A stretch of DNA of 64,000 nucleotides from Promethearchaeati archaeon (GCA_013166775.1 JABLTJ010000001.1:224009-288008), one strand, 5' to 3'. Shown: positions 49,801-62,747, counted from the first letter of the stretch. Notes: generated from the sequence alone by a model not told the origin. Numbers and translations are program-made.

Positions 49801-50415
49801 ATGTTTGGAAACTTTATGGGATGGCTTTTAGGATCAAAAAAAAGCCCACGTGATCATATTATAAATCTCAGATTAACAGTTCGAAGATTGGAAAGAGCTC
49901 AGAGAAAATTGTCACGTGATGAATCGAAAATGCAATTAAAGATGAAACAAAGCATTCAACGAGGCGATTTAGAATCTGCAAGATTATTTGCAACCGATAT
50001 TGTGAGAAGTAGACGATGGGAATTTGGATATCAAAAACTTGTTTCAAGAATGAACGGATTGATTTTCAAATTAGAAAGAGCGGATACAGCTGCTAGTATG
50101 GCAGAAGAAATGCATGGCATTGCAGCAGCATTACGCGCTGCTAATGCACAATTACAAATTCCTGATTTAGATAAAGTAATCCAAGATATGGAAAGCTCTA
50201 TAGATGGGATTGAAAACTCTACTGGAACCATAGAAGATGGAATTGATGATTTATTGGTTACAGATACTGACCCAGCAGAAGTAGATAGATTGATTGAGCA
50301 GACTGCAGTTGAATTAGGAGTATCTACACAGGCAGGTCTGCCATCTGTTGGAGTTGTGGAAACAGACGATTTAGAAGCAGAAATTCAAAAATTGAGAAGG
50401 AAGGAAGAAGATTAA
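49801..50415 (+). CDS. ESCRT-III, Vps2/Vps24/Vps46 class
   Basis: Amphipathic N-terminus MFGNFMGWLLG, Snf7 helical core (GDLESARLFA), MIM1-like DLEAEIQKLRR. Confidence 0.9.
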   Translation: MFGNFMGWLLGSKKSPRDHIINLRLTVRRLERAQRKLSRDESKMQLKMKQSIQRGDLESARLFATDIVRSRRWEFGYQKLVSRMNGLIFKLERADTAASMAEEMHGIAAALRAANAQLQIPDLDKVIQDMESSIDGIENSTGTIEDGIDDLLVTDTDPAEVDRLIEQTAVELGVSTQAGLPSVGVVETDDLEAEIQKLRRKEED

Positions 50416-50429
50416 TAAGGTGATATTTT

Positions 50430-51083
50430 ATGGTTAAAAATTGGCTTTTTGGAAAGAAAAGAAAGGAAGATGCCGATGCTTTAGCTACACTCAAAGCACA
50501 ACAGAATCGTCTTCAAGCAGAATCCAGAAATTTGGAAAGACAAGCAGATGAACAGAAAGCTTTAGCAGCTAAAATGCTACAAGCAGGAAACAAGGCGGGA
50601 GCAAGACAAGCTCTTAAAAGAAGAGCAGTGTTCATGAAAAGATTAAACACTGTTCATAACACAGCAATGAATTTGCAAGCTCAGATTGACAGTATTCAAA
50701 CAGCTACATCAACAGCTGACACAGTTCAAGCAATGGAACTAGGTACTAAAGTAGTCGGTGAAAAGATTAAAACTGTCTCTCCAGAAAGAACAGAGAGAGT
50801 TATGGATACAGTTATGGAACAGAGAGATCAAATTGAAATGATGACTGAAGCTTTATCAGATCCCAGCCTTTCAGAAGGAATTTTGGACTTCGAAGATGAT
50901 GCAGCAATTGATGATCAACTTGCGCAACTTGAAGCTGAAATGGATCTAGGTACAACAACAAGTCTTCCCGATGTAACTGGTTTGCCTAGTACACCTATTG
51001 GAACAGAAAAAGCTGAAGATACATCTGATTTAGAAGAAGAACTCCAAAGCTTAAAGAAAAAAGTAAGTGAAGATAAAGGTTAG
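50430..51083 (+). CDS. ESCRT-III, Vps20/Vps32/Vps60 class
   Basis: NWLFG N-terminus, GNKAGARQALKRR, acidic C-half with MIM2-like LPDVTGLP. Confidence 0.9.
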   Translation: MVKNWLFGKKRKEDADALATLKAQQNRLQAESRNLERQADEQKALAAKMLQAGNKAGARQALKRRAVFMKRLNTVHNTAMNLQAQIDSIQTATSTADTVQAMELGTKVVGEKIKTVSPERTERVMDTVMEQRDQIEMMTEALSDPSLSEGILDFEDDAAIDDQLAQLEAEMDLGTTTSLPDVTGLPSTPIGTEKAEDTSDLEEELQSLKKKVSEDKG

Positions 51084-51212
51084 TTAGATATCTTCCACTT
51101 TTTTGGTTTTTTTATTTAAAATGAATATATCTCAAATGAGTTTTTCTTATAAAGAATCTAAATAAAACGATTTATATCTGATGAATGAAATAGTAGTATA
51201 GAAATTCAAAAA

Positions 51213-52376
51213 ATGGTGGTTGTGACATCCGTGTCAGCTCAAGGCTTAATAGATCATGCTAGAGAATTTGCTTTAAAAGCTTACAGTTTTGATAAAGAAA
51301 AGAACTATAGTGAAGCAATTCCGTATTATTTGGATGCTTCAGAAGCATTAATGAAAGCAATAAAATTTGAACGAAATCCCCAAGTTGCTAGATCTTTGAA
51401 GAAGAAAGCAGAAATGTATTTAGCGAGGGCTAAGGAATTAAAGGAACTTTTGGAAAAAAGAAAGGAGCGAAAGTCTACTGCTGGAAGCGATGATGAGGAT
51501 GACAAACTTGAAGGTGCTATTGCTGATATAATAGTAACAGAAAAACCTGATATTAGATTGAATGATATAGCAGGACTAGAAAATGCTAAACAAACATTAA
51601 GAGAAGCAATAGTTCTTCCCCTTATGCGTCCAGATTTATTTTCAGGAGCAAGAAGACCTTGGAAAGGAATATTGCTTTTTGGTCCTCCTGGTTGTGGAAA
51701 GACCCTACTAGCAAGAGCAACTGCTGCTGAAGTAGAAGCAACTTTCTTTAATGTGAGTGCTGCGTCCATTATATCAAAATGGTTAGGTGAATCAGAAAAA
51801 CTAGTTCAATCTTTATTCCACTTAGCTCGAGAAAAGCAACCAAGTATTGTTTTTATTGATGAAGTTGATGCGCTTGCAGGAGCAAGGGGTGGAGAGCATG
51901 ATGCTATGAGAAGAGTAAAAACTGAACTTCTAACATCTATGGATGGATTATCAAGCTCAGAAACTGATCGTATTGTTACTGTAGGAGCAACCAATATTCC
52001 ACAATCAATCGACGCTGCATTCCGTAGAAGGTTCGAACGTCGAATCTATATCCCTCTACCTGATGAACCTGCACGAGAGGCTATCTTTGAATTTAACAGT
52101 AGAGGCGTAGATATGACTGATGAAGTAGATTTTTCGTTGCTTTCAGAAATTACAGATAGTTACACAGGTGCTGATATTGCTATGGTCTGTAGAGATGCTA
52201 TTATGACACCAATTAGAGAATTGGATATGACAGGAGCAATAGGAGATAGTTCTATACAAGCTCGAGCTGTTACTCAAAACGATTTCTTAGATGCTATAGA
52301 AATGATTAATCCCTCCGTCAGCGATGATGAAGTTGAAAAATACGATAATTGGAATGCAGAATTTGGCAGTGCTTAG
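51213..52376 (+). CDS. vps4: Vps4 AAA+ ATPase (MIT + AAA)
   Basis: MIT domain, GPPGCGKT, SKWLGESE, FIDEVD, RRRFERRIY, C-terminal EFG. Confidence 0.96.
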   Translation: MVVVTSVSAQGLIDHAREFALKAYSFDKEKNYSEAIPYYLDASEALMKAIKFERNPQVARSLKKKAEMYLARAKELKELLEKRKERKSTAGSDDEDDKLEGAIADIIVTEKPDIRLNDIAGLENAKQTLREAIVLPLMRPDLFSGARRPWKGILLFGPPGCGKTLLARATAAEVEATFFNVSAASIISKWLGESEKLVQSLFHLAREKQPSIVFIDEVDALAGARGGEHDAMRRVKTELLTSMDGLSSSETDRIVTVGATNIPQSIDAAFRRRFERRIYIPLPDEPAREAIFEFNSRGVDMTDEVDFSLLSEITDSYTGADIAMVCRDAIMTPIRELDMTGAIGDSSIQARAVTQNDFLDAIEMINPSVSDDEVEKYDNWNAEFGSA

Positions 52377-52396
52377 TAACAAGGTGAGTTCCTTCA

Positions 52397-53161
52397 ATGT
52401 CGACACTTGAAAAAAAGAAAGATAAGGAAGAAGATGAGGAAATTGTCGAAAAAATCGACCTTGAGCAATTGAAGGAAGAAAAAGAAGTTTCAGAAGAAAA
52501 ATTAAAGCTAATTAAAGCTAGCATTGAAGGGTTGGAAATCACAGAAGAAGATCTCAAAGCCACCATGCCCATTGTTGCGATTTCTTCAAAAGAAGACATC
52601 TCAAAAGAACAACGTGCAGTTTTAGAAGTTGAATTCGAGGATAGTCTTCCAAAATGGGTCAAAGCACCATGGATGTATATTCGACCTAAAAAGGAATCTC
52701 AAGTCGAATCTTGGCTTGAAAGTTGGTCGGCTATTGTTTTAGATCATTCAAGAATATTCGTTATCCATATCATTAATATCAATGAATTAAGATCTGAGTT
52801 TCCCTTTAAAAATTCTAAAGTTAGCAAAAGGTTAACTATAGAACAAGTGAGGGAGATTGTTGATCAACTTGTTAAACAAAATATTGCAAAATGGTTAGAT
52901 GAAAAAACAAAAACAAGGGCAAGAATTTACTGGAAAGCAAATGAAGAATGGGCTGATGAATTACTTGATTTTATGATTGAAACTGGACGAGTGGTTGAAA
53001 TTCACTCACTTTTTGACCTTACACAATTAGAAGAAAAATGGAGTAATTTACCTGCTGATGATTTGATTCTAGTTTGTGAGATGCTTGTGGAGAAAAAAGT
53101 AGCAAGATGGTTAAACAAAGATAAAACAATAATTCAGTTTGAAGCTGATAAAGTGTTTTAA
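52397..53161 (+). CDS. vps25: ESCRT-II Vps25-like tandem winged-helix protein with acidic N-terminal extension
   Basis: PWMY.RP....Q..SW...WS, ARIYW...EEWA..L; directly after vps4. Confidence 0.8.
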   Translation: MSTLEKKKDKEEDEEIVEKIDLEQLKEEKEVSEEKLKLIKASIEGLEITEEDLKATMPIVAISSKEDISKEQRAVLEVEFEDSLPKWVKAPWMYIRPKKESQVESWLESWSAIVLDHSRIFVIHIININELRSEFPFKNSKVSKRLTIEQVREIVDQLVKQNIAKWLDEKTKTRARIYWKANEEWADELLDFMIETGRVVEIHSLFDLTQLEEKWSNLPADDLILVCEMLVEKKVARWLNKDKTIIQFEADKVF

Positions 53162-53227: not shown

Positions 53228-54130
53228 TTATTTCTTCTTCTTATTGAAAAAAAGGTCTAGATTTGATTGAATCTTCCTTTCCTTTCTTCTTAATCTTTCG
53301 TTTCTCTGAAAATTTATGAATCCTTTCTCCGTTGGTTCTATCCCAAATAAGTGACATTTGAAAGTATATAGATTATATTCAGTTACTTTTCCTCTTCTCC
53401 TTTGAACAAAAACTAATTTTTCAAATTCAAATGGATCTGGATAAAGTAGTAAATTACAACCCTTACACATCCAGAGTTCTCTTTCTAAGCTTAATTTGTG
53501 TGTTTTTTGCTCAGTAACAGCTATATTCAGTGTTTCTGTGTTACTACCTAATTCAGAACTACAATACGGACACTGGTACACATCTTTTTCTACATTTTCA
53601 TTGGTTTGTTTAATTATATTTACTGATTCTATAAAATTGTAAATATCTTCTTCTTCCTCAAATTCGTTCTTTTTATCGTAAACACAATGTTTTCTTAACC
53701 AATCATCATCAGGTTCATCTGGAAAATCTTGCATTATATAGAAATCACCCTGTATGACATCACAATATTCACACACATTCACCCAGTATTTCGTTTTTAA
53801 AACGTTACTAAATCTTAGTTTGAAAGGGATTCCGTCATCAACTAGTTTTTTCTTAAGTGAATTATCAAATAGAATAAAACTAAATTCATTTAGTTTCCAT
53901 TTTTTTAGATTTGGAGTAACATATTCTATTGTTCCAATAAAATTATTGTTCTTTCTTTTGCATCTAAAGCATTCTCTCTCAAACGAATAGACACGAATTC
54001 TTTCCTGCGGAAAAAGAATATAAGCTATTTCAACCAACCTCTCTAATGTGAAATTTATCCTCTCTTTATAGATTAAGTAGCTGATTATAATTAGTTTTCT
54101 CATTTTGTTGTGTTTTCTTACATACTTCAC
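53228..54130 (-). CDS. Multi-Zn-finger protein with C-terminal PIP box
   Basis: CFRC, CEYC, CPYC, CKGC; ends KIQSNLDLFFNKKKK. True start may lie about 30 codons inside. Confidence 0.7.
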   Translation of the reverse strand: MKYVRKHNKMRKLIIISYLIYKERINFTLERLVEIAYILFPQERIRVYSFERECFRCKRKNNNFIGTIEYVTPNLKKWKLNEFSFILFDNSLKKKLVDDGIPFKLRFSNVLKTKYWVNVCEYCDVIQGDFYIMQDFPDEPDDDWLRKHCVYDKKNEFEEEEDIYNFIESVNIIKQTNENVEKDVYQCPYCSSELGSNTETLNIAVTEQKTHKLSLERELWMCKGCNLLLYPDPFEFEKLVFVQRRRGKVTEYNLYTFKCHLFGIEPTEKGFINFQRNERLRRKERKIQSNLDLFFNKKKK

Positions 54131-54138
54131 TTAAGAAA

Positions 54139-54203
54139 TTAAAGTCTATCTGTTCAATAGACAAAAAGACTTATATATTTTAAAGTCTATCTGTTCAATA
54201 GAC
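54139..54203. promoter_or_regulatory. Twin operator: two identical 24-bp units, each with palindrome GTCTAT-N7-ATAGAC, flanking a TATA box
   Basis: TTAAAGTCTATCTGTTCAATAGAC at 54139-54162 and 54180-54203; TTATATAT at 54171-54178. Confidence 0.8.
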
Positions 54204-54213
54204 GTGTAATTAT

Positions 54214-54741
54214 ATGGGAATAGTATATGATAAGTATTTCAAGATTACAAGGTTTGATGAATTATTTGATTTATTTCATAAAGACGATGATATAGACTCT
54301 GCAGGAAGAGACTTTCTTTATGAACAATATGATAAATCAGAGAAAGCACAATCAATCATTCTTCTAAACAATCAGAAGAAAGAAGCTTGGACAAGTCTTC
54401 ATGAAGTTGATAAAATTAACTTAGATAATATCAAGAGTGAACAATATATAAAACGTGATTATTCAGAGGTTATAGTTTTTTTAATTAAATGGGATCATAT
54501 AGTAATTGATAATGAACTTGAGGATATTTTAACTGATGATCAACACTTTGTTTGGTATCTGAGGGATGTATATGAATTATCTTATTCTGAGATTGGTAGT
54601 ATAAGAGAACATATGGAAAAAAGTGCCAATGAGAGTACCATGAGAGATATTTACATGAAAGCTAGAGTAAAAATGAAGAAGCTGTTAGAATTGTGTGACA
54701 AATATTCAGATATTTTAAGAGGGATTAAGAGTGTTAAATAA
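54214..54741 (+). CDS. Putative regulator with C-terminal sigma70 region-4-like HTH
   Basis: LTDDQHFVWYLRDVYELSYSEIG...ESTMRDIYMKARVKM matches the L..Q..V..LR...LSY.EI...T.....AR pattern. Confidence 0.65.
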   Translation: MGIVYDKYFKITRFDELFDLFHKDDDIDSAGRDFLYEQYDKSEKAQSIILLNNQKKEAWTSLHEVDKINLDNIKSEQYIKRDYSEVIVFLIKWDHIVIDNELEDILTDDQHFVWYLRDVYELSYSEIGSIREHMEKSANESTMRDIYMKARVKMKKLLELCDKYSDILRGIKSVK

Positions 54742-54982
54742 TCAAGAAAAACTACCCATTAGTGATTTCTACACAGTACTAAACTATCAAACAATTAGTA
54801 GATCAAGTAGATGGTGGTCTTTTATCGTTCTAATTAAAGCAAGAAATAAAAAGAAAATTGGTCTTTATCTTTTCCAAAAGAAAAACGATGAATGGAAGAG
54901 GAAACATAAGTTCACAATCAGCAGCAGAGAGGAGTATGAAGATATTAAGAAAGTGTTAGGAAACTATTCAAAAAATTTGTGA
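54731..54982 (+). CDS. Small basic beta-rich protein, possibly PC4-like ssDNA-binding
   Basis: TI.RS.RWW..IVL...IGLYLFQ...WKRKHKF.I plus C-terminal helix; overlaps both neighbours. Confidence 0.5.
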   Translation: MLNNQEKLPISDFYTVLNYQTISRSSRWWSFIVLIKARNKKKIGLYLFQKKNDEWKRKHKFTISSREEYEDIKKVLGNYSKNL

Positions 54983-55407
54983 TGAGGAAAATTATGAATT
55001 ATCAAATATTGGTGGATGGACAGAATCTACTACGTCATAGAGATGGAACAATAAAACTTCAGAATCTTATCATCCTTAGAAGTTGGGCGAACAAAAATGG
55101 AATAGAGATTAAAGTGATTTTACCAGATTCAAGGAGATATAAAGAGAGAATTGAAGGAGTAGAGGATATTGTTTTCATTAATTATCATGTTCATGATGAT
55201 AGTGCTTTAATCCAACTAGCTATTGATTTAGATTTGCCTATTCTTTCTAATGACAAATTTAGAAATTTCATGCATCTTTATCCAGAATTTGATTTTAAGG
55301 GTAAAGTATTTTCTTTTGATATTGTACTTGGAGTACTTGTTTCAGAAATAGTTGATGATTTTAAATCACAAAATGAAAAGTTTCCTCAAATCATGGTTAA
55401 TAGCTAA
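54979..55407 (+). CDS. NYN/PIN-fold RNase, Zc3h12a (Regnase-1)-like
   Basis: ILVDGQNL, HDD..LIQLA, ILSNDKFR give the acidic catalytic set. Confidence 0.8.
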   Translation: MMRKIMNYQILVDGQNLLRHRDGTIKLQNLIILRSWANKNGIEIKVILPDSRRYKERIEGVEDIVFINYHVHDDSALIQLAIDLDLPILSNDKFRNFMHLYPEFDFKGKVFSFDIVLGVLVSEIVDDFKSQNEKFPQIMVNS

Positions 55408-55516
55408 GAAAATTTTATTTTTCATTTTAATGTGTGTTTAACAAGCTTGTATCACTAATCTTTATAATAGATTTATTTCTTACTAAAGTGATAATTGGCT
55501 AAATGAATGAATTCAA

Positions 55517-56260
55517 ATGAATATTATACAATTCTTTAATGAGGTTTTTGACAAAGATGAAGTTCAAAACATTGCATTATTTTTTGGTTTGAGTACTACT
55601 GGAAAAAAAGCAGAAATAATAAAAAGAATAGCTAAAAGTGAAAATTTTGATGTGAATGAATTATTGAATCATTTCAATAGGGATCAATTATATATTCTAT
55701 GTTTTAATTTAAGACTACCAGTCTCAGGAACCAAAAAAGAGCTTTGGAATAGAATTGTTACAAGATTTCAACTTGATAGGGAAATTCCTGTAATTGAAGA
55801 ACCTGAACCAGATGAAGTATCACCTACTCCACAGATTGATGAACAGATACCAGAGGAAAAGCAGATAGTTGAGGATAAGAAAGTTGATGAAGAACTCCAT
55901 GAAATTGCAGATATCATTAGCAACTGGGTTCCTGATATGAGATATATCCATGAAGAAGGATACCAAGCTGAGTTAAGTTCCTTACTAAAATTAAAACACG
56001 GATTTAAAGTACAAAAAGAGGTGGGAGCTACACAAATTGATATCTTAGTAAATGATACTATCCCCATAGAACTTAAAAAGAATCCTAACCGTGGGGATTT
56101 TGATAGACTCAGTGGTCAAATTATTCGAAATATTGATACATATGGAAAGCTGATAGTAGTTATCTGTCAGTTGGAAACTCAAGAACTTTTTATGGAATAC
56201 AAAAGCAGTCTTGGGAATAGATACTCTTCTGAAGAATTAGTTTTCATTGTGAAGTCTTAG
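55517..56260 (+). CDS. Tandem SAP-like domains fused to a PD-(D/E)xK nuclease domain
   Basis: GLSTTGKKAEIIKRI and RLPVSGTKKELWNRI; acidic Pro linker; EEGYQ..L...KE...IDILV...IELK. Confidence 0.7.
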   Translation: MNIIQFFNEVFDKDEVQNIALFFGLSTTGKKAEIIKRIAKSENFDVNELLNHFNRDQLYILCFNLRLPVSGTKKELWNRIVTRFQLDREIPVIEEPEPDEVSPTPQIDEQIPEEKQIVEDKKVDEELHEIADIISNWVPDMRYIHEEGYQAELSSLLKLKHGFKVQKEVGATQIDILVNDTIPIELKKNPNRGDFDRLSGQIIRNIDTYGKLIVVICQLETQELFMEYKSSLGNRYSSEELVFIVKS

Positions 56261-56313
56261 AAACATCTTTCTTCTTTGTTGTTTTTATATCAAAAGCCCT
56301 TTAGTTTCTTAAC

Positions 56314-56535
56314 ATGAGTGAGTATTCCAATTATAAGTTAGGTAAAGTTGATCTTGAAACAGAAAACGCTTATCTAGCTATAATTGATAATTTTACAGAT
56401 AGGGAAATTTGGGTTCCTAAATCCGTTGTTGGTCCTGATAAAAGAATCAAACAATGGTTTATCAATCAGAAAGACAAAGAACTGAAAGATTTTATGAGAA
56501 AGAAGAAGCAATCAGATTTAGCTCGATTCTTCTAA
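56314..56535 (+). CDS. Small phage-like protein with C-terminal PIP box
   Basis: ETENAYL...EIWVPKS; ends RKKKQSDLARFF. Confidence 0.7.
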   Translation: MSEYSNYKLGKVDLETENAYLAIIDNFTDREIWVPKSVVGPDKRIKQWFINQKDKELKDFMRKKKQSDLARFF

Positions 56536-56565: not shown

Positions 56566-57246
56566 TTATATAAGCGAAGCATATATTGGAGACCCAATAA
56601 CAATTTTGATTTTTCTTGAACCAATCTCTTGCGTGTCTTCATATAACTTCTTTGCTAAAAATTCTATTTCTTGTTCTACTAATTGACCTAGATGTCTTGA
56701 ACTGAGCCACTCGATTGCATGATAAGCACCTTGATTTACTGGTGCTCTTAGATTATTTACAATCTCATCATTAGGACCAAATGAATCTAGTCTATTAAAA
56801 AAAACAGATATATTAAATAGGTCTGATCTACGTGTTTCATCAAACATCGGAGGCTCTTCTGTTGTTACGTGTTTAGGCGTGCCCCCTAAAATAAAAACAA
56901 GATCACCATAGTTCTCTTGCTCAGATTTCTTTCCCTTACGAGAAAGAAGATAAAAAATGACCATCCTATCAGATTGTTCGAGAGATAGAATTCCCCATTT
57001 CAGTTTTGCAGTATCTTGTATGTACGATTTTGGGTTATTTATCGTCCCTACTTCGCATTTTTTTAAAATATATTCTGAAACTTTCTTCGCTTTTCTTAAT
57101 TTATGCTTCTGAGCATCTACAACAAGACCTAAACTGAAAAAGTTTCTAAAAGCTAGATTAAGCTTGAAATTTATTTTACTCCAGCTATTCATTTGAGGGA
57201 ATAGCATTTCTATTTTTGCATCTGAACAATACAAATAATATTTCAT
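56566..57246 (-). CDS. DUF7019/SAVMC3_10250-like hypothetical protein
   Basis: MKYYLY.SDAK..MLFPQ N-terminus and EFLAK.L...GSPIY C-terminus. Confidence 0.6.
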   Translation of the reverse strand: MKYYLYCSDAKIEMLFPQMNSWSKINFKLNLAFRNFFSLGLVVDAQKHKLRKAKKVSEYILKKCEVGTINNPKSYIQDTAKLKWGILSLEQSDRMVIFYLLSRKGKKSEQENYGDLVFILGGTPKHVTTEEPPMFDETRRSDLFNISVFFNRLDSFGPNDEIVNNLRAPVNQGAYHAIEWLSSRHLGQLVEQEIEFLAKKLYEDTQEIGSRKIKIVIGSPIYASLI

Positions 57247-57360: not shown

Positions 57361-58284
57361 ATGGATAAGGATTCAGATCCCTTACTTAATTCCAAAAAAG
57401 ATAATTTCAGAAAACACTTTAGATGGTATTTAGACGAAGGATATAAATTTAAGGAAATTCCTGAAGAAGAGCGGAATTATGAGAAAGCTATAGCGTTTTT
57501 AGAGAGAGCTGCAGAGGAATTAGAATCTGCTGAAGCGACTTTGAAAATAGAAAATTATAGGGACACTATTTATCATTCTCAACGAATTGTTGAATTAATT
57601 GGAAAATCCCTACTATTAAGTTCAGGATATGCAGTCGAAGAGGATTTCAAAGGAAAAATAGGGCATAGATTTTTCCAATATATTTTGAAGAAGTTACGTG
57701 GATTGTTGATATCAATGAGTAAATATCTTAGCGACAGTTTTAGCGAAGATACGATTAAACAAATAGATCGATATTTTGGGGATTCTGGTGATAAAGACAC
57801 AAAAAAGAAATCCTTAGAATTTGATAATTACTTAGAAGTTGAAAATACATTTAATGAGTTTTTTTCAAATATTGAGTATGTTTCCAGTGTATTAAATAGT
57901 ATTGATTTCATTGATTTAACTAAAAATGGCATAGATGAAACAATTGATATCATTCTTGATGAAGCTAAGCATGAATTGAAGAGAGAACTTTCAGATAAGG
58001 AAATACAGCTATTTACAAAAGTATATGAAAACAGTTTAAAGAAAGCTCCTCCCATAAAAACTGGTCTTAATACTTATATTGTTGTTATGTTGCTTTTTTA
58101 CATATCATTTCTAAGCATGAATTTGGAACCTCATTTTGAATCTGTAAGATATCCAGATCATACAGCTCCTGTTTATACCAAAGATACAAATTTAGTTAAG
58201 AATTTACCAGTAATTCTTCGCCTAATCTCAAAAATTATCGAAGTCTATTATTATCTTCTATCCATGAATCTCCCACTTGGTTAA
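57361..58284 (+). CDS. HEPN-domain protein with large helical insertion
   Basis: FLERA.EEL.SA......Y...YHSQ..VE..GKS, IGH, terminal RYPD. Confidence 0.72.
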   Translation: MDKDSDPLLNSKKDNFRKHFRWYLDEGYKFKEIPEEERNYEKAIAFLERAAEELESAEATLKIENYRDTIYHSQRIVELIGKSLLLSSGYAVEEDFKGKIGHRFFQYILKKLRGLLISMSKYLSDSFSEDTIKQIDRYFGDSGDKDTKKKSLEFDNYLEVENTFNEFFSNIEYVSSVLNSIDFIDLTKNGIDETIDIILDEAKHELKRELSDKEIQLFTKVYENSLKKAPPIKTGLNTYIVVMLLFYISFLSMNLEPHFESVRYPDHTAPVYTKDTNLVKNLPVILRLISKIIEVYYYLLSMNLPLG

Positions 58285-60002: not shown

Positions 60003-62747
60003 ATGTTTTTATATTCTTGTTTAGTTGAATTTGTAGACTTAATAGAACAACTTGCTCAAGTGATGAACATGAAGGATTCCAAGAATCGATATAACAAGAA
60101 AAGGAATCCCTCATACTCATCAGATTCTGAAGCAAACGAACGAATTACGAAGTCTTGGATAAAATCAATTATATCTTATATTGTCACTTTAATTGTAGGA
60201 TTAACAGCTTTTTTCTTCCTTTTTCCAGAATTAATCTCCAAAATTTTTCCTTCTTTCTCTCTAGCTAGTTCTTCTTTTATCACCAAATTAAGGGATGCAT
60301 TAAGTACTCCATTGCTAAGAGTAATTTTGAGTATAGGGTTGATTATCCTCCTCATACTAGTTCTCTGGAACTATTCTCCTTATGTCATAACTAGTAATAA
60401 AGAAGTGTTCTGTCAGCGAAAGGTATTTTTCCCATTTTTTTGTAAAGTCAGCAGTATTTTACTAGTTTCTCAAGTAGAAAGTGATAACACAAATAGACAA
60501 TACTATGCTTTTAAAATACATGAGAGTTTCAGTCAATCGTTAGCTTTCAACATTAGTCATATTCAAATGGCAATATCAAACTTCGAATCCATTGTTAGTA
60601 TATACTTTATACTTACACTGAAAGGTTTTGTCAGAAAGAATCTTGTAAAAAGAATACAAAAGAATTTGTTATTTCTTTCCAATTCGCTTAACACTTATTA
60701 TGATAGTTCTAGTGAGATTCTAACTTTTGAACAGACAAGGTTGCTATTTCAGAATCTTAAAGAAATGAAAATCAAAAACCAATTAGATATTTCATCCACA
60801 GAAGAAATCGATCTAGATGTACCAGAACTATTATACAAGACAATCTCAAATGAGAATTTATCGAATATCACTTTGTTATTAGATGTAAAGAGAGAGAAGA
60901 AGAAATCTACCAATTTCTTCTTGCAATTACATTCCCTTTCCAATGATAAACAAACTTTAGAATATTTTACTAGTGCAACAGGTTTCACCAAAAAACATCG
61001 AATATCAAGAGTAAAGAAAAGGCTAACAATTTTATCTGAAAAACTGAAAAATTACCTGCATCTACCTTTTGATTATCAAGGATCTGTTTTTGTTTTACAG
61101 CCAAGGAGAAAGAAAACCTCCCAGCATCAACAATCTGTTCTTTTGGGGTATGAGTACAAAGGAATACTAACAGATGAGATCTTTATTGATGTTGGAGAGT
61201 TGCTCTACAATGTTGAGATTTATGGTATGATAGGAAGAGGGAAAACACGTTTAGTTAGCAGCATGATTGATCAACTCATAAGTTTCGAAACTCCATGTTT
61301 AATTTTTGATATCAAGGGGGAATATGCTGCTACGTTTGTAGATGATCCCAACGTGGAAATTTATACAATAGGAGAACCCCATCCATTATGCATAAATTTG
61401 TTTGACACTAAAGACGAAGACGATGTACGGAGCACTCTCTTAATCATTGAAGAGATGATGGTAACTTCCAATCAAGAATTTAGTGCGTCTATGAAGAATC
61501 TCTTTGAAACAGCTCTGTTCTTAACACATACAGCTGTTGAAAGAACCTTAGAAACTTATGTTGAAAAGTTGATTACTCTTGCAAAGGAAACTCGTCATAT
61601 TGCTTCAATTCAACACACTCTAGATGCTGTTCTAAACAGATTAAATTTTATCTTCAATCCAATCAGTTTTGAGATACTTGGGGTGAAAGAGAATAATCTG
61701 GACTTCGAATTATTAGAGAAAGGAAAAAGCATTATTCTTGATTTAAGTCAATTTCAAAAACGAGCTGCTAGACCTTCTGATATTTATCTTGTCTGTAATC
61801 TCATACTGAAAATGTTTTATCGTTATGTTAATTCAAAAAATAATGCAGACCAAGGTTTACAGTATGTAGTGGTTTTAGAAGAAGCTGTTAATATTATCCC
61901 TCAATTCTATAACACACCGAGTTCTGCAACTCTGATAACTGCTGAAAATAATTTCTTACTTGGGAGAAGTTTGGGGATTGGACATATTACAGTCTCACAG
62001 TTATGGACGAGTGTAAGTAATATTGTTCATGGCAACTCATCAACCAAGATAGTTTTTCGATCAGGTCAAGGAGTAGAGAAAATTGCTGATGCATTAAATC
62101 TTCAAGAAGAACAGCACAAACGTATTCAACAACTTCCTATTCGAAACTGCTTCGTTTGGATAGATGGTCAAGACCAAGCAATTGAGATGACAACTGCAGA
62201 TTTTACACTTAATCCTCTCAACTATACACTTTATATTCAAATTCTTAAAAGAAAATATCCTTCCTTTGTTTATCCCAAATTGTATAACAGTTTTATTGAT
62301 ATGCGAACCACACTTTATGCGAATCTTAGTAAACAAACAAACCAAAACAAAAAACGAAAATCAAACATAAACAAAAAATCCCAAAATAAGGAGATTAAAG
62401 GTAAGTCTCCAACTGCTGAGAAAACTTCTACTAAACCATCAACAGAAGTATTTTCCAAAGAAAAACAAGAAGAGAAAGATGATATTTGTGACACTTTTTG
62501 TTCATCAAATAGAAATAAAGAAGCCTGTATAAGCAGTAAGAAGAATGCACAACTCATTTCTTCAATTATATTAAAACGATACTCTAGCTTTGAAATTGAG
62601 CAAGCCATTCTTGGAAACTCACATACAACAATAGAAGATTTACTCAATAAAGTTATTTTGGAGAAAAAGTTAGAAAATACTGAACAGGTGCTTTTCTGTT
62701 CTCAAAGAGAATTAACTAATCATTTAATGAGTAAAGATTTGTCATAA
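60003..62747 (+). CDS. Membrane-anchored HerA/FtsK-superfamily (TraD/VirB4/DUF87-like) ATPase
   Basis: Two N-terminal TMs, GMIGRGKT, IFDIKGEY, VVLEEA, GRSLG...SQ, N..TKIVFR; start uncertain (60062-60069 likely). Confidence 0.82.
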   Translation: MFLYSCLVEFVDLIEQLAQVMNMKDSKNRYNKKRNPSYSSDSEANERITKSWIKSIISYIVTLIVGLTAFFFLFPELISKIFPSFSLASSSFITKLRDALSTPLLRVILSIGLIILLILVLWNYSPYVITSNKEVFCQRKVFFPFFCKVSSILLVSQVESDNTNRQYYAFKIHESFSQSLAFNISHIQMAISNFESIVSIYFILTLKGFVRKNLVKRIQKNLLFLSNSLNTYYDSSSEILTFEQTRLLFQNLKEMKIKNQLDISSTEEIDLDVPELLYKTISNENLSNITLLLDVKREKKKSTNFFLQLHSLSNDKQTLEYFTSATGFTKKHRISRVKKRLTILSEKLKNYLHLPFDYQGSVFVLQPRRKKTSQHQQSVLLGYEYKGILTDEIFIDVGELLYNVEIYGMIGRGKTRLVSSMIDQLISFETPCLIFDIKGEYAATFVDDPNVEIYTIGEPHPLCINLFDTKDEDDVRSTLLIIEEMMVTSNQEFSASMKNLFETALFLTHTAVERTLETYVEKLITLAKETRHIASIQHTLDAVLNRLNFIFNPISFEILGVKENNLDFELLEKGKSIILDLSQFQKRAARPSDIYLVCNLILKMFYRYVNSKNNADQGLQYVVVLEEAVNIIPQFYNTPSSATLITAENNFLLGRSLGIGHITVSQLWTSVSNIVHGNSSTKIVFRSGQGVEKIADALNLQEEQHKRIQQLPIRNCFVWIDGQDQAIEMTTADFTLNPLNYTLYIQILKRKYPSFVYPKLYNSFIDMRTTLYANLSKQTNQNKKRKSNINKKSQNKEIKGKSPTAEKTSTKPSTEVFSKEKQEEKDDICDTFCSSNRNKEACISSKKNAQLISSIILKRYSSFEIEQAILGNSHTTIEDLLNKVILEKKLENTEQVLFCSQRELTNHLMSKDLS

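Follow-up and report, generated by a model that had tools for sequence, protein, structure and literature searches.

The DNA analysed here, a 64,000-nucleotide (nt) stretch of the genome of a Promethearchaeati archaeon (GCA_013166775.1 JABLTJ010000001.1:224009-288008; hereafter the window), comes from a Heimdall (Asgard) archaeon and carries, at 53228-56535, six closely spaced genes whose two outermost products end in predicted PCNA-interacting peptide (PIP) boxes. On balance, we favor the reading that this stretch is the left part of an accessory, defense-type island, found only in this genome among those compared, and that it holds two units, each bringing a PIP-tailed protein together with a predicted nuclease or ribonuclease (RNase). 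The six genes form a local mosaic of at least two units and not one conserved system. Within this reading, both tails are quite probably true PCNA-binding peptides, and a role of the island against invading elements is about an even call. A check of the open reading frames (ORFs) bore out the six genes with the order, strands and ends described in an earlier note on this DNA; they and their control elements are as follows.

53228-54130, minus strand: Zn-finger PIP protein, 300 residues from a GTG start (291 residues from the ATG at 54103), ending ...KIQSNLDLFFNKKKK
54139-54162 and 54180-54203: twin operator, two identical 24-nt copies, each GTCTAT-N7-ATAGAC
54171-54178: TATA-like box TTATATAT, between the operator copies
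54214-54741, plus strand: 175-residue protein with a weak sigma-70 region-4-like helix-turn-helix (HTH; matches below cut-off), candidate operator-binding repressor
54731-54982, plus strand: 83-residue protein of a widespread unannotated family, overlapping both flanking genes
54979-55407, plus strand: predicted stand-alone Regnase/KHNYN-like NYN ribonuclease, 142 residues (Pfam, family profile, catalytic residues)
55517-56260, plus strand: predicted SAP-SAP and PD-(D/E)xK-like nuclease (SAP-nuclease), 247 residues (Pfam SAP; invariant D175, E185-x-K187)
56283-56290, plus strand: TATA-like box TTTTATAT, 24-31 nt 5' of the ATG of the gene that follows
56314-56535, plus strand: 73-residue PIP microprotein, ending ...KKKQSDLARFF

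The tails of both outer proteins resemble true PIP boxes

The peptide QSNLDLFF (53246-53269) lies 5 residues before the end of the 300-residue protein and is followed by NKKKK, and QSDLARFF (56509-56532) forms the very end of the 73-residue protein; both pairs of coordinates agree with the earlier note. The motif tested was Q-x-x-[LIM]-x-x-[FY]-[FYLIMV] in an exposed, usually C-terminal position. Among the 9208 ORFs of the genome, about 8 credible genes have the strict motif within the last 20 residues, namely FEN1, DinB, NreA, a DUF72 protein, a beta-CASP-like protein and three genes of no named family, two of which are those at this locus. We estimate the chance that two of 8 such genes would lie within 3.3 kb at ~5%. 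Elsewhere in this genome, a 175-residue protein of no known family ends in QSKLSDFF and is encoded 7 kb from the gene for the PIP-tailed DinB (L004; C56:52577-53104), and PIP tails are also present on the DUF72 protein (L003) and on the beta-CASP/RMMBL-like protein (L002).

Homologues of both proteins tend to keep the tail. Of 23 aligned homologues in the 73-residue family (26-84% identity), 19 finish with Q-x-x-[LM]-x-x-[FY]-x despite variation in the preceding linker, metagenome relatives keep a PIP-type ending, and distant relatives of high GC content end in QHGLADFA or LTRLDRFA. In the Zn-finger family, a Q[AV]SLEAFI box with a lysine-rich tail behind it is present in four of five other sequences, two of them copies from the related genome G025 and two of them fragments. 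In addition, co-folding of the 73-residue protein with the PCNA of its own genome (L001:1495-2280) gave a score of 0.64, compared with 0.15 for the best of three controls, and passed a mark that is reached by 58 of 80 solved complexes and by 2 of 110 mismatched pairs; the runs shared at least 85% of their contacts and the confidence of the partner (predicted local distance difference test, pLDDT) was at least 77. In this model, residues 63-73 contact PCNA residues 41-48, 127/130, 231-232 and 248-255, which make up the classical hydrophobic PIP pocket beneath the interdomain connecting loop, although the pass may reflect likeness to solved PIP-PCNA complexes and indicates likeness rather than binding. 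Because of the specificity of the motif, its conservation in homologues and the predicted docking of the 73-residue tail, both tails look like real PIP boxes, as the earlier note had proposed.

We consider it very improbable that the tails are chance motifs that do not bind the clamp: although the relaxed motif is expected ~8 times at C-termini genome-wide and one metagenomic Zn-finger homologue (P0002) ends in KRTLFDYL, without the glutamine, the motif is kept across homologues whose linkers vary, the strict form is otherwise confined to known clamp clients, and the co-fold places the 73-residue tail in the PIP pocket by a wide margin over controls.

A divergent promoter plausibly links the Zn-finger gene to a three-gene operon

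The 83-nt spacer between the two divergent genes contains a 24-nt direct repeat twice, in copies that are 100% identical and 41 nt apart, confirming the twin operator of the earlier note. Its palindrome, GTCTAT-N7-ATAGAC, is found at only these two sites in the 3.85-Mb genome, compared with 0.45 expected. Since the only TATA-like box in the spacer has an operator copy on either side, transcription leaving in either direction meets one operator after the TATA box, an arrangement that fits a single repressor closing both the Zn-finger gene and the operon. The genes of that operon do overlap as previously described, the 175- and 83-residue genes by 11 nt and the 83-residue and NYN genes by 4 nt if the latter starts at its GTG, or by 1 nt (TGATG) if it starts at the ATG at 54982. 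Because they share one TATA box with an identical operator on each side, the Zn-finger gene and the 175-83-NYN operon are plausibly co-regulated. The operator pair serves the divergent promoter only and neither the SAP-nuclease gene, which is set off by a 110-nt spacer, nor the 73-residue gene, which follows a further 54-nt spacer; co-regulation, once suggested for all six genes, is retained here for four of them.

The Zn-finger protein combines a CoiA_N-like Zn domain, marked by C54/C57/C120/C123 and QGD, with a second ribbon (CxxC...CxxC), a C-terminal helix and the PIP box. It belongs to a rare family: an exhaustive profile search recovered only 12 relatives among 1.84 billion representative proteins, a word-indexed homologue search returned only the protein itself, and no copy was found in any of the 24 other species of the genus. 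The structure model is confident only at residues 40-155, with the second ribbon and the tail at low confidence. The four cysteines and the QGD motif of the first domain are invariant, and the domain recurs, fused to DUF5710, a Top1-type zinc ribbon or HTH_3, in proteins that are bacterial or phage-linked; the DUF5710-fused proteins have the four Zn-binding cysteines and QGD in common with it. Over residues 38-160 the predicted structure resembles CoiA_N (TM-score 0.59-0.70, query-normalized), but the protein has no Pfam match and, in place of the CoiA nuclease domain, carries a PIP tail and another Zn ribbon. Comparison of the model with solved structures by VIA-align matched terminal helices only (Z <= 5.5), Foldseek against the PDB gave no row at E <= 0.001, and PDB sequence searches with the Zn-finger and 73-residue family profiles gave no significant match. 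In G025, two near-identical 264-residue Zn-finger PIP genes (L011:3-2121 and L009:594-3296) are each paired with a different R-x4-6-H protein (HEPN-like by eye, no Pfam match), and one copy also lies beside an AbiV gene. An MmeI-like type IIG restriction-modification gene follows the gene for a metagenomic homologue.

The three proteins of the operon differ in how firmly they can be assigned. The NYN assignment (Zc3h12a-like, PF11977) is solid at the sequence level: although the Pfam match passes only marginally (5.5e-5; 23.4 bits, cut-off 23), a profile built from five homologues finds ZC3H12A/B/C and KHNYN in the PDB at 1.6e-8 to 9e-6 over profile positions 19-130, and the catalytic residues D13/N16 (DGxN), D73-D74 (DD) and S90-N91-D92 (SND) are conserved, in agreement with the NYN RNase named earlier. 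Like Regnase-1/ZC3H12A-C and KHNYN, the protein is matched over the whole NYN domain (~1e-8) and keeps the DGxN, DD and SND motifs; unlike them, it is a stand-alone protein of 142 residues, lacks a CCCH zinc finger or KH domain, and is encoded by the last gene of an operon with the sigma4-like and 83-residue proteins. Homologues of the NYN gene stand first in a radical-SAM operon of G025 and G013; this conserved operon (L058:3-1947 on G025:C33; L059 on G013:C109) consists of the NYN RNase, a radical-SAM enzyme (CxxxCxxC) that looks viperin-like by eye, and a 191-residue protein.

The 83-residue protein belongs to a large unannotated family present in 35 of the 101 genomes searched and is predicted to form a small strand-rich domain with a C-terminal helix. 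No Pfam, PHROG or NCBIfam match was found, its family profile had no PDB match, and the nearest named atlas cluster, DUF3276, has a feature score of only 0.78; the label PC4-like given to it before was not confirmed. In two genomes, homologues are located directly upstream of a gene for a PLD-nuclease plus ResIII/SNF2 helicase (L067:2-1818 on G025:C39; L068 on G017:C217). The gene opposite the homologue is a PAPS-reductase-domain gene in G025 (DndC-like by eye) and a methylase-like gene, also by eye, in G017. The assignment of the 175-residue protein is weak. Five sigma-factor models align at approximately residues 77-160, the ECF-sigma region-4 matches covering about residues 95-160, with E of 0.003-0.05, all far below their cut-offs; no Pfam match and no close homologue among 100 related genomes was found, and a search of the PDB with the single sequence returned only coiled-coil noise. 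The HTH named in the earlier note is therefore a weak call.

We propose that these four genes would constitute a divergent, self-regulated cassette, with the Zn-finger PIP gene transcribed leftwards and the coupled operon rightwards. The sigma4-like protein would most likely bind both operators and repress the Zn-finger gene together with its own operon. Release from repression would yield the Regnase-like NYN RNase, likely the effector or toxin of this unit, along with the 83-residue protein, and the Zn-finger protein, a probable DNA binder, would be loaded on DNA via PCNA.

A multi-copy PIP microprotein family in nuclease-rich neighborhoods

The second unit begins with the SAP-nuclease. Its SAP domain (PF02037) matches Pfam well above the gathering score (5.4e-8; 32.7 bits against a cut-off of 23.9), and SAP_new25 matches two stretches. 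The C-terminal half is likely a PD-(D/E)xK nuclease, to judge from residues D175 and E185-x-K187, which are invariant in four homologues, and from a weak match (6e-4) to a phage (PHROG) nuclease family; the family profile found no match in the PDB for this part. Accordingly, the SAP portion of the SAP-SAP-PD-(D/E)xK architecture described before is firm and the nuclease portion plausible, not proven. Full-length homologues were found only in the related genomes G024 and G001, in both cases near members of the 73-residue family. The following genes lie downstream of the unit in the window.

56566-57246, minus strand: DUF7019 protein, island member
57361-58284, plus strand: HEPN-domain protein, predicted RNase
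60003-62747, plus strand: HerA/FtsK-like ATPase, 914 residues

The 73-residue family is present in 22 of the 24 other genomes of the genus and in both genomes of the sister genus, a single genome having as many as 9 matches. Its model (pLDDT 82) predicts a small SH3-like barrel with four to five strands, then a basic helix of some length and finally the tail, and the barrel carries the motif E-T-E-x-A...W-[IV]-P-K-S. The nearest shapes are small uncharacterized tailed-phage proteins (Foldseek E 0.01, TM-score 0.6; atlas clusters 97-100% viral). Since the best PDB matches reach a Z of 3.2 or lower (YfhH, SH3, chromo, KOW), the term SH3-like describes a shape and does not assign a family. Nucleotide similarity among gene copies begins ~42 nt 5' of the ATG and takes in the TATA-like box, indicating that the gene has its own promoter; it is a self-contained and probably leaderless unit. 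A larger repeated element around the gene was rejected as an explanation, as similarity among copies is limited to ~200-290 nt (gene and promoter).

Window-type copies of the gene lie in non-syntenic DNA, and the family shows a recurrent, loose association with SAP-nuclease, HEPN, NYN and HerA-like genes. SAP-nucleases occur near members in the window, G024 and G001, and a member precedes a SAP-TPR protein in G025; overall, of the five family genomes with a SAP-type match, our genome included, four encode a SAP-domain protein within 7 kb of a member. HerA-like ATPases are found near members in the window, G012 and G001, where the ATPase gene comes after those for the SAP-nuclease and a HEPN-like protein, all on one strand. 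HEPN-domain proteins adjoin a member in G029 and are one gene away in the window, and NYN proteins (PF01936) are nearby in G001 and G025. Further recurrent neighbors are YaaC, RING-finger and beta-helix proteins.

Several variants of the family were also observed. A third subgroup (L025:1435-1701, L026:1426-1701 and L027:1444-1704), at a conserved locus beside an AHSA1/START-like gene, has an acidic stretch and a P-P-x-x-W tail in place of the PIP box, which may be a different docking motif. On metagenome contigs of 65-70% GC (L130:4698-5168, L124:90-467 and L120:83-451), proteins of 122-156 residues carry an E-T-E-K-A...W-L-P-K-S barrel at their C-terminal end and the QHGLADFA or LTRLDRFA endings noted above; given these proteins, the pairing of barrel and PIP-like tail may be older than Heimdallarchaeota. 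In G001 (L043:8678-10236, contig C1), a member lies 17 nt behind two adjacent proteasome-subunit genes on the same strand, one of the two being confirmed by Pfam. One subgroup has the tail QKTMTD[FY], with T-D inside the PIP box, as in eukaryotic PIP degrons, and genes for RING-H2 proteins (L038:8932-9825 in G024; L033:9353-9700 in G012) adjoin SAP-nuclease or 73-residue family genes. Together with the lysines that follow the PIP box of the Zn-finger protein, the T-D residues and the RING genes near two copies permit the speculation that some of these tails act as PIP degrons.

In our reading, the second unit would consist of the SAP-SAP-PD-(D/E)xK nuclease and the PIP microprotein with its own promoter, with HEPN and HerA-like genes downstream, its genes forming a loose neighborhood that recurs in relatives. 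If the proposal for both units is right, the tails would tether two proteins, the DNA-binding Zn-finger protein and the small beta-barrel protein, to replicating DNA loaded with clamps. The 73-residue protein would serve as an adaptor between PCNA and proteins of neighboring genes (nuclease, TPR or HEPN proteins), which at this locus means the SAP-nuclease and perhaps the downstream HEPN and HerA-like proteins. A hint of such a role is that a conserved core paralogue is always directly upstream of a small TPR protein, and that the G025 member precedes the SAP-TPR protein. In this way attack on nucleic acids, or its control, would be tied to replication, most likely that of invading elements.

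The island interrupts a conserved ESCRT gene cluster

In four genomes of the same genus, a Vps25-like gene of the endosomal sorting complex required for transport (ESCRT)-II is followed within ~12 nt by a convergent gene, which we take to be Vps22/EAP30-like (by eye), and then by a conserved block. In our genome the convergent gene is located on another contig (C27:7557-8291; L093), with the conserved block extending from 7557 onwards, and hence both the DNA from 53228 to the end of the window's contig, C1 (10.8 kb), and C27:1-7500 are extra DNA. The cluster itself, at 49801-53161 in the window, comprises two ESCRT-III genes and a Vps4-like AAA ATPase (both by eye) and the Vps25-like gene (Pfam), and is split in this genome by at least 18 kb of inserted DNA. 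The C27 portion encodes an ABC-type ATPase and two large, ABC-permease-like membrane proteins, all three named by eye, as well as TnpB. The last is a 522-residue TnpB/Cas12f-like protein (L093:5468-7036) that matches PADLOC Cas12 models at ~1e-23, and a 520-nt non-coding stretch separates its gene from the conserved neighbor; this stretch could hold a guide RNA and the end of the element. A comparison of the two island junctions revealed no att-like direct repeat.

Alternative explanations for the gene set

Contexts of homologues of the individual genes are mostly defense-like, and the description of the locus as a nucleic-acid-processing neighborhood holds in that it is rich in predicted nucleases and RNases of the type found in conflict systems; the further claim that it is a single module does not. 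Several observations nonetheless weigh against the defense-type island that we favor. The six-gene set is repeated at no locus in 100 related genomes, and a search of PADLOC-DB v2 found no family at E <= 0.1 for the six genes, apart from a chance-level match of GajA (0.01) to the SAP-nuclease; PHROGs gave only weak rows for the proteins of the locus. With the set unrepeated and no PADLOC model fitting, the defense reading rests on guilt by association with unannotated loci. The HTH assignment of the candidate repressor is weak, and in genus g14 the 83-residue family precedes an acyl-CoA-dehydrogenase-like gene (by eye). Neighbors of the 73-residue family also include housekeeping genes (proteasome, CoA ligase, peptidases), and the core paralogue, at C73:47427-47678 in our own genome, is syntenic and 90% identical in two congeners; for these reasons the family may be a general host PCNA partner and not a part of a defense system. 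The docking model covers only the 73-residue protein of the two PIP-tailed proteins, and P0002 departs from the motif. Finally, the end of C1 and the start of C27 are not joined and do not overlap, and because terminal 31-mers of both recur at the ends of C6 and C93, pointing to a collapsed repeat, the size and the right half of the island are uncertain.

The main rival, which we regard as unlikely, derives the island from a virus or plasmid that once integrated and has since decayed. Its PIP proteins would be clamp hijackers or inhibitors comparable to TIP or p21, drafting host PCNA into replication of the element or blocking replication of the host. The insertion is genome-specific, the 73-residue barrel resembles tailed-phage proteins and occurs on one phage contig, the Zn domain recurs in bacterial and phage proteins fused to DUF5710 or a Top1 zinc ribbon, the HerA/FtsK-like ATPase weakly matches a terminase family, and TnpB lies on the far side. 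However, no integrase, capsid, replication-initiator or att repeat was found in the island DNA. A scan of IMG/VR with the 73-residue family returned one high-GC phage contig, encoding a barrel without a PIP tail, and no archaeal viral copy, and thus provides no evidence for an origin in an Asgard virus. Moreover, the core paralogue is syntenic and conserved across species, and most neighbors of the family are chromosomal genes.

Less probable still is that these proteins are ordinary, lineage-specific PCNA clients of the host in a variable region, with a role in the damage response or in chromatin. The other PIP-tailed proteins of the genome are repair enzymes, the core paralogue is conserved with its TPR partner, and one copy lies directly behind proteasome genes. 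On the other hand, the Zn-finger protein was not found in any other species of the genus examined, and the window-type copies of the 73-residue gene are non-syntenic and lie beside HEPN, NYN, SAP-nuclease and HerA-like genes, a pattern not expected of a housekeeping repair factor.

We give a similarly low probability to the model of the earlier note, in which the six genes are one dedicated, co-regulated, PCNA-targeted system defined by the PIP proteins at its ends. The genes are indeed close together within 3.3 kb, three are translationally coupled, an operator pair lies at the divergent promoter and each end has a PIP tail. But the 73-residue gene has its own conserved promoter and is scattered in unrelated contexts, the Zn-finger homologues pair with other genes, the operator is confined to the divergent promoter with the two spacers following the operon, and the search for co-occurrence in relatives found the set in 0 of 100, with homologues of its genes sitting in other contexts. 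The same note recognized no named system in this gene set, and no PADLOC component model fits the six genes.

Relation to known clamp partners and significance

The two-unit island that we favor shares features with several known systems. Like the archaeal PCNA clients FEN1, DinB/Dpo4, NreA, RNase HII and RFC-L, both proteins have Q-x-x-L-x-x-F-F near the C-terminus after a basic or polar linker. They differ from these clients in that their globular parts, a rare two-Zn-domain protein and a 50-residue barrel, are not replication or repair enzymes, and in that both genes lie in accessory DNA, one being from a multi-copy family. Among eukaryotes, p21 and PAF15 are small PCNA-binding regulators. 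In Thermococcales, TIP reshapes PCNA and prevents assembly of the trimer (PMC10506467). The 73-residue protein resembles all three in being too small for an enzyme and in having a clamp-binding peptide as its main feature, and it could block or modulate the clamp, but no relation in sequence or fold was found and it has several paralogues per genome; compared with TIP, it has a canonical PIP tail behind a folded barrel of phage type, an arrangement suggestive of an adaptor.

Our proposal of a conflict-type cassette that works by way of the replication clamp has a parallel in SocAB, a toxin-antitoxin system of Caulobacter whose toxin, SocB, binds the beta sliding clamp. SocAB differs in being bacterial, in acting on the beta clamp and in being unrelated in sequence. 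The ATPase in the window (Pfam DUF87, 9e-12; weak PADLOC and NCBIfam anti-phage HerA matches) recalls HerA-associated anti-phage systems, in which HerA is combined with a nuclease or Sir2, and NurA-HerA, since it is of HerA/FtsK type and in G001 is in line with a PD-(D/E)xK-like nuclease. Its scores, however, are far below the family cut-offs, the nuclease has SAP motifs, and the arrangement includes an intervening HEPN-like gene and PIP microprotein; neither Sir2 nor DUF4297 nor NurA turned up in HerA-like neighborhoods, although no search was aimed at them.

Beyond the two-unit reading, the 73-residue family might consist of clamp adaptors that aim or license nucleases at replicating invader DNA, and with the PIP-tailed Zn-finger protein they would make up a form of replication-coupled innate immunity. 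In such an adaptor the phage-type barrel would hold the partner (a SAP-nuclease, HEPN/NYN RNase, HerA-like ATPase or TPR protein) and the PIP tail would hold PCNA. We put this forward tentatively and think it rather doubtful.

PCNA is the hub by which eukaryotes and archaea bring enzymes to replicating DNA. We know of no described case in which defense or conflict genes use it, and a literature search found none. The locus adds a lineage-specific, multi-copy family of PIP microproteins and a rare PIP-tailed Zn-finger protein, both of which sit among predicted RNases and nucleases in accessory Heimdallarchaeota DNA, in a species whose ESCRT gene cluster is split by the insertion. If these proteins are ordinary clamp clients, the archaeal PCNA interactome is still enlarged. 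If the tails work as predicted, they would offer a testable handle on how Asgard archaea couple defense, or the replication of elements, to the replication fork, and should the immunity proposal be true, they would reveal a layer of immunity tied to replication in the archaea closest to eukaryotes.

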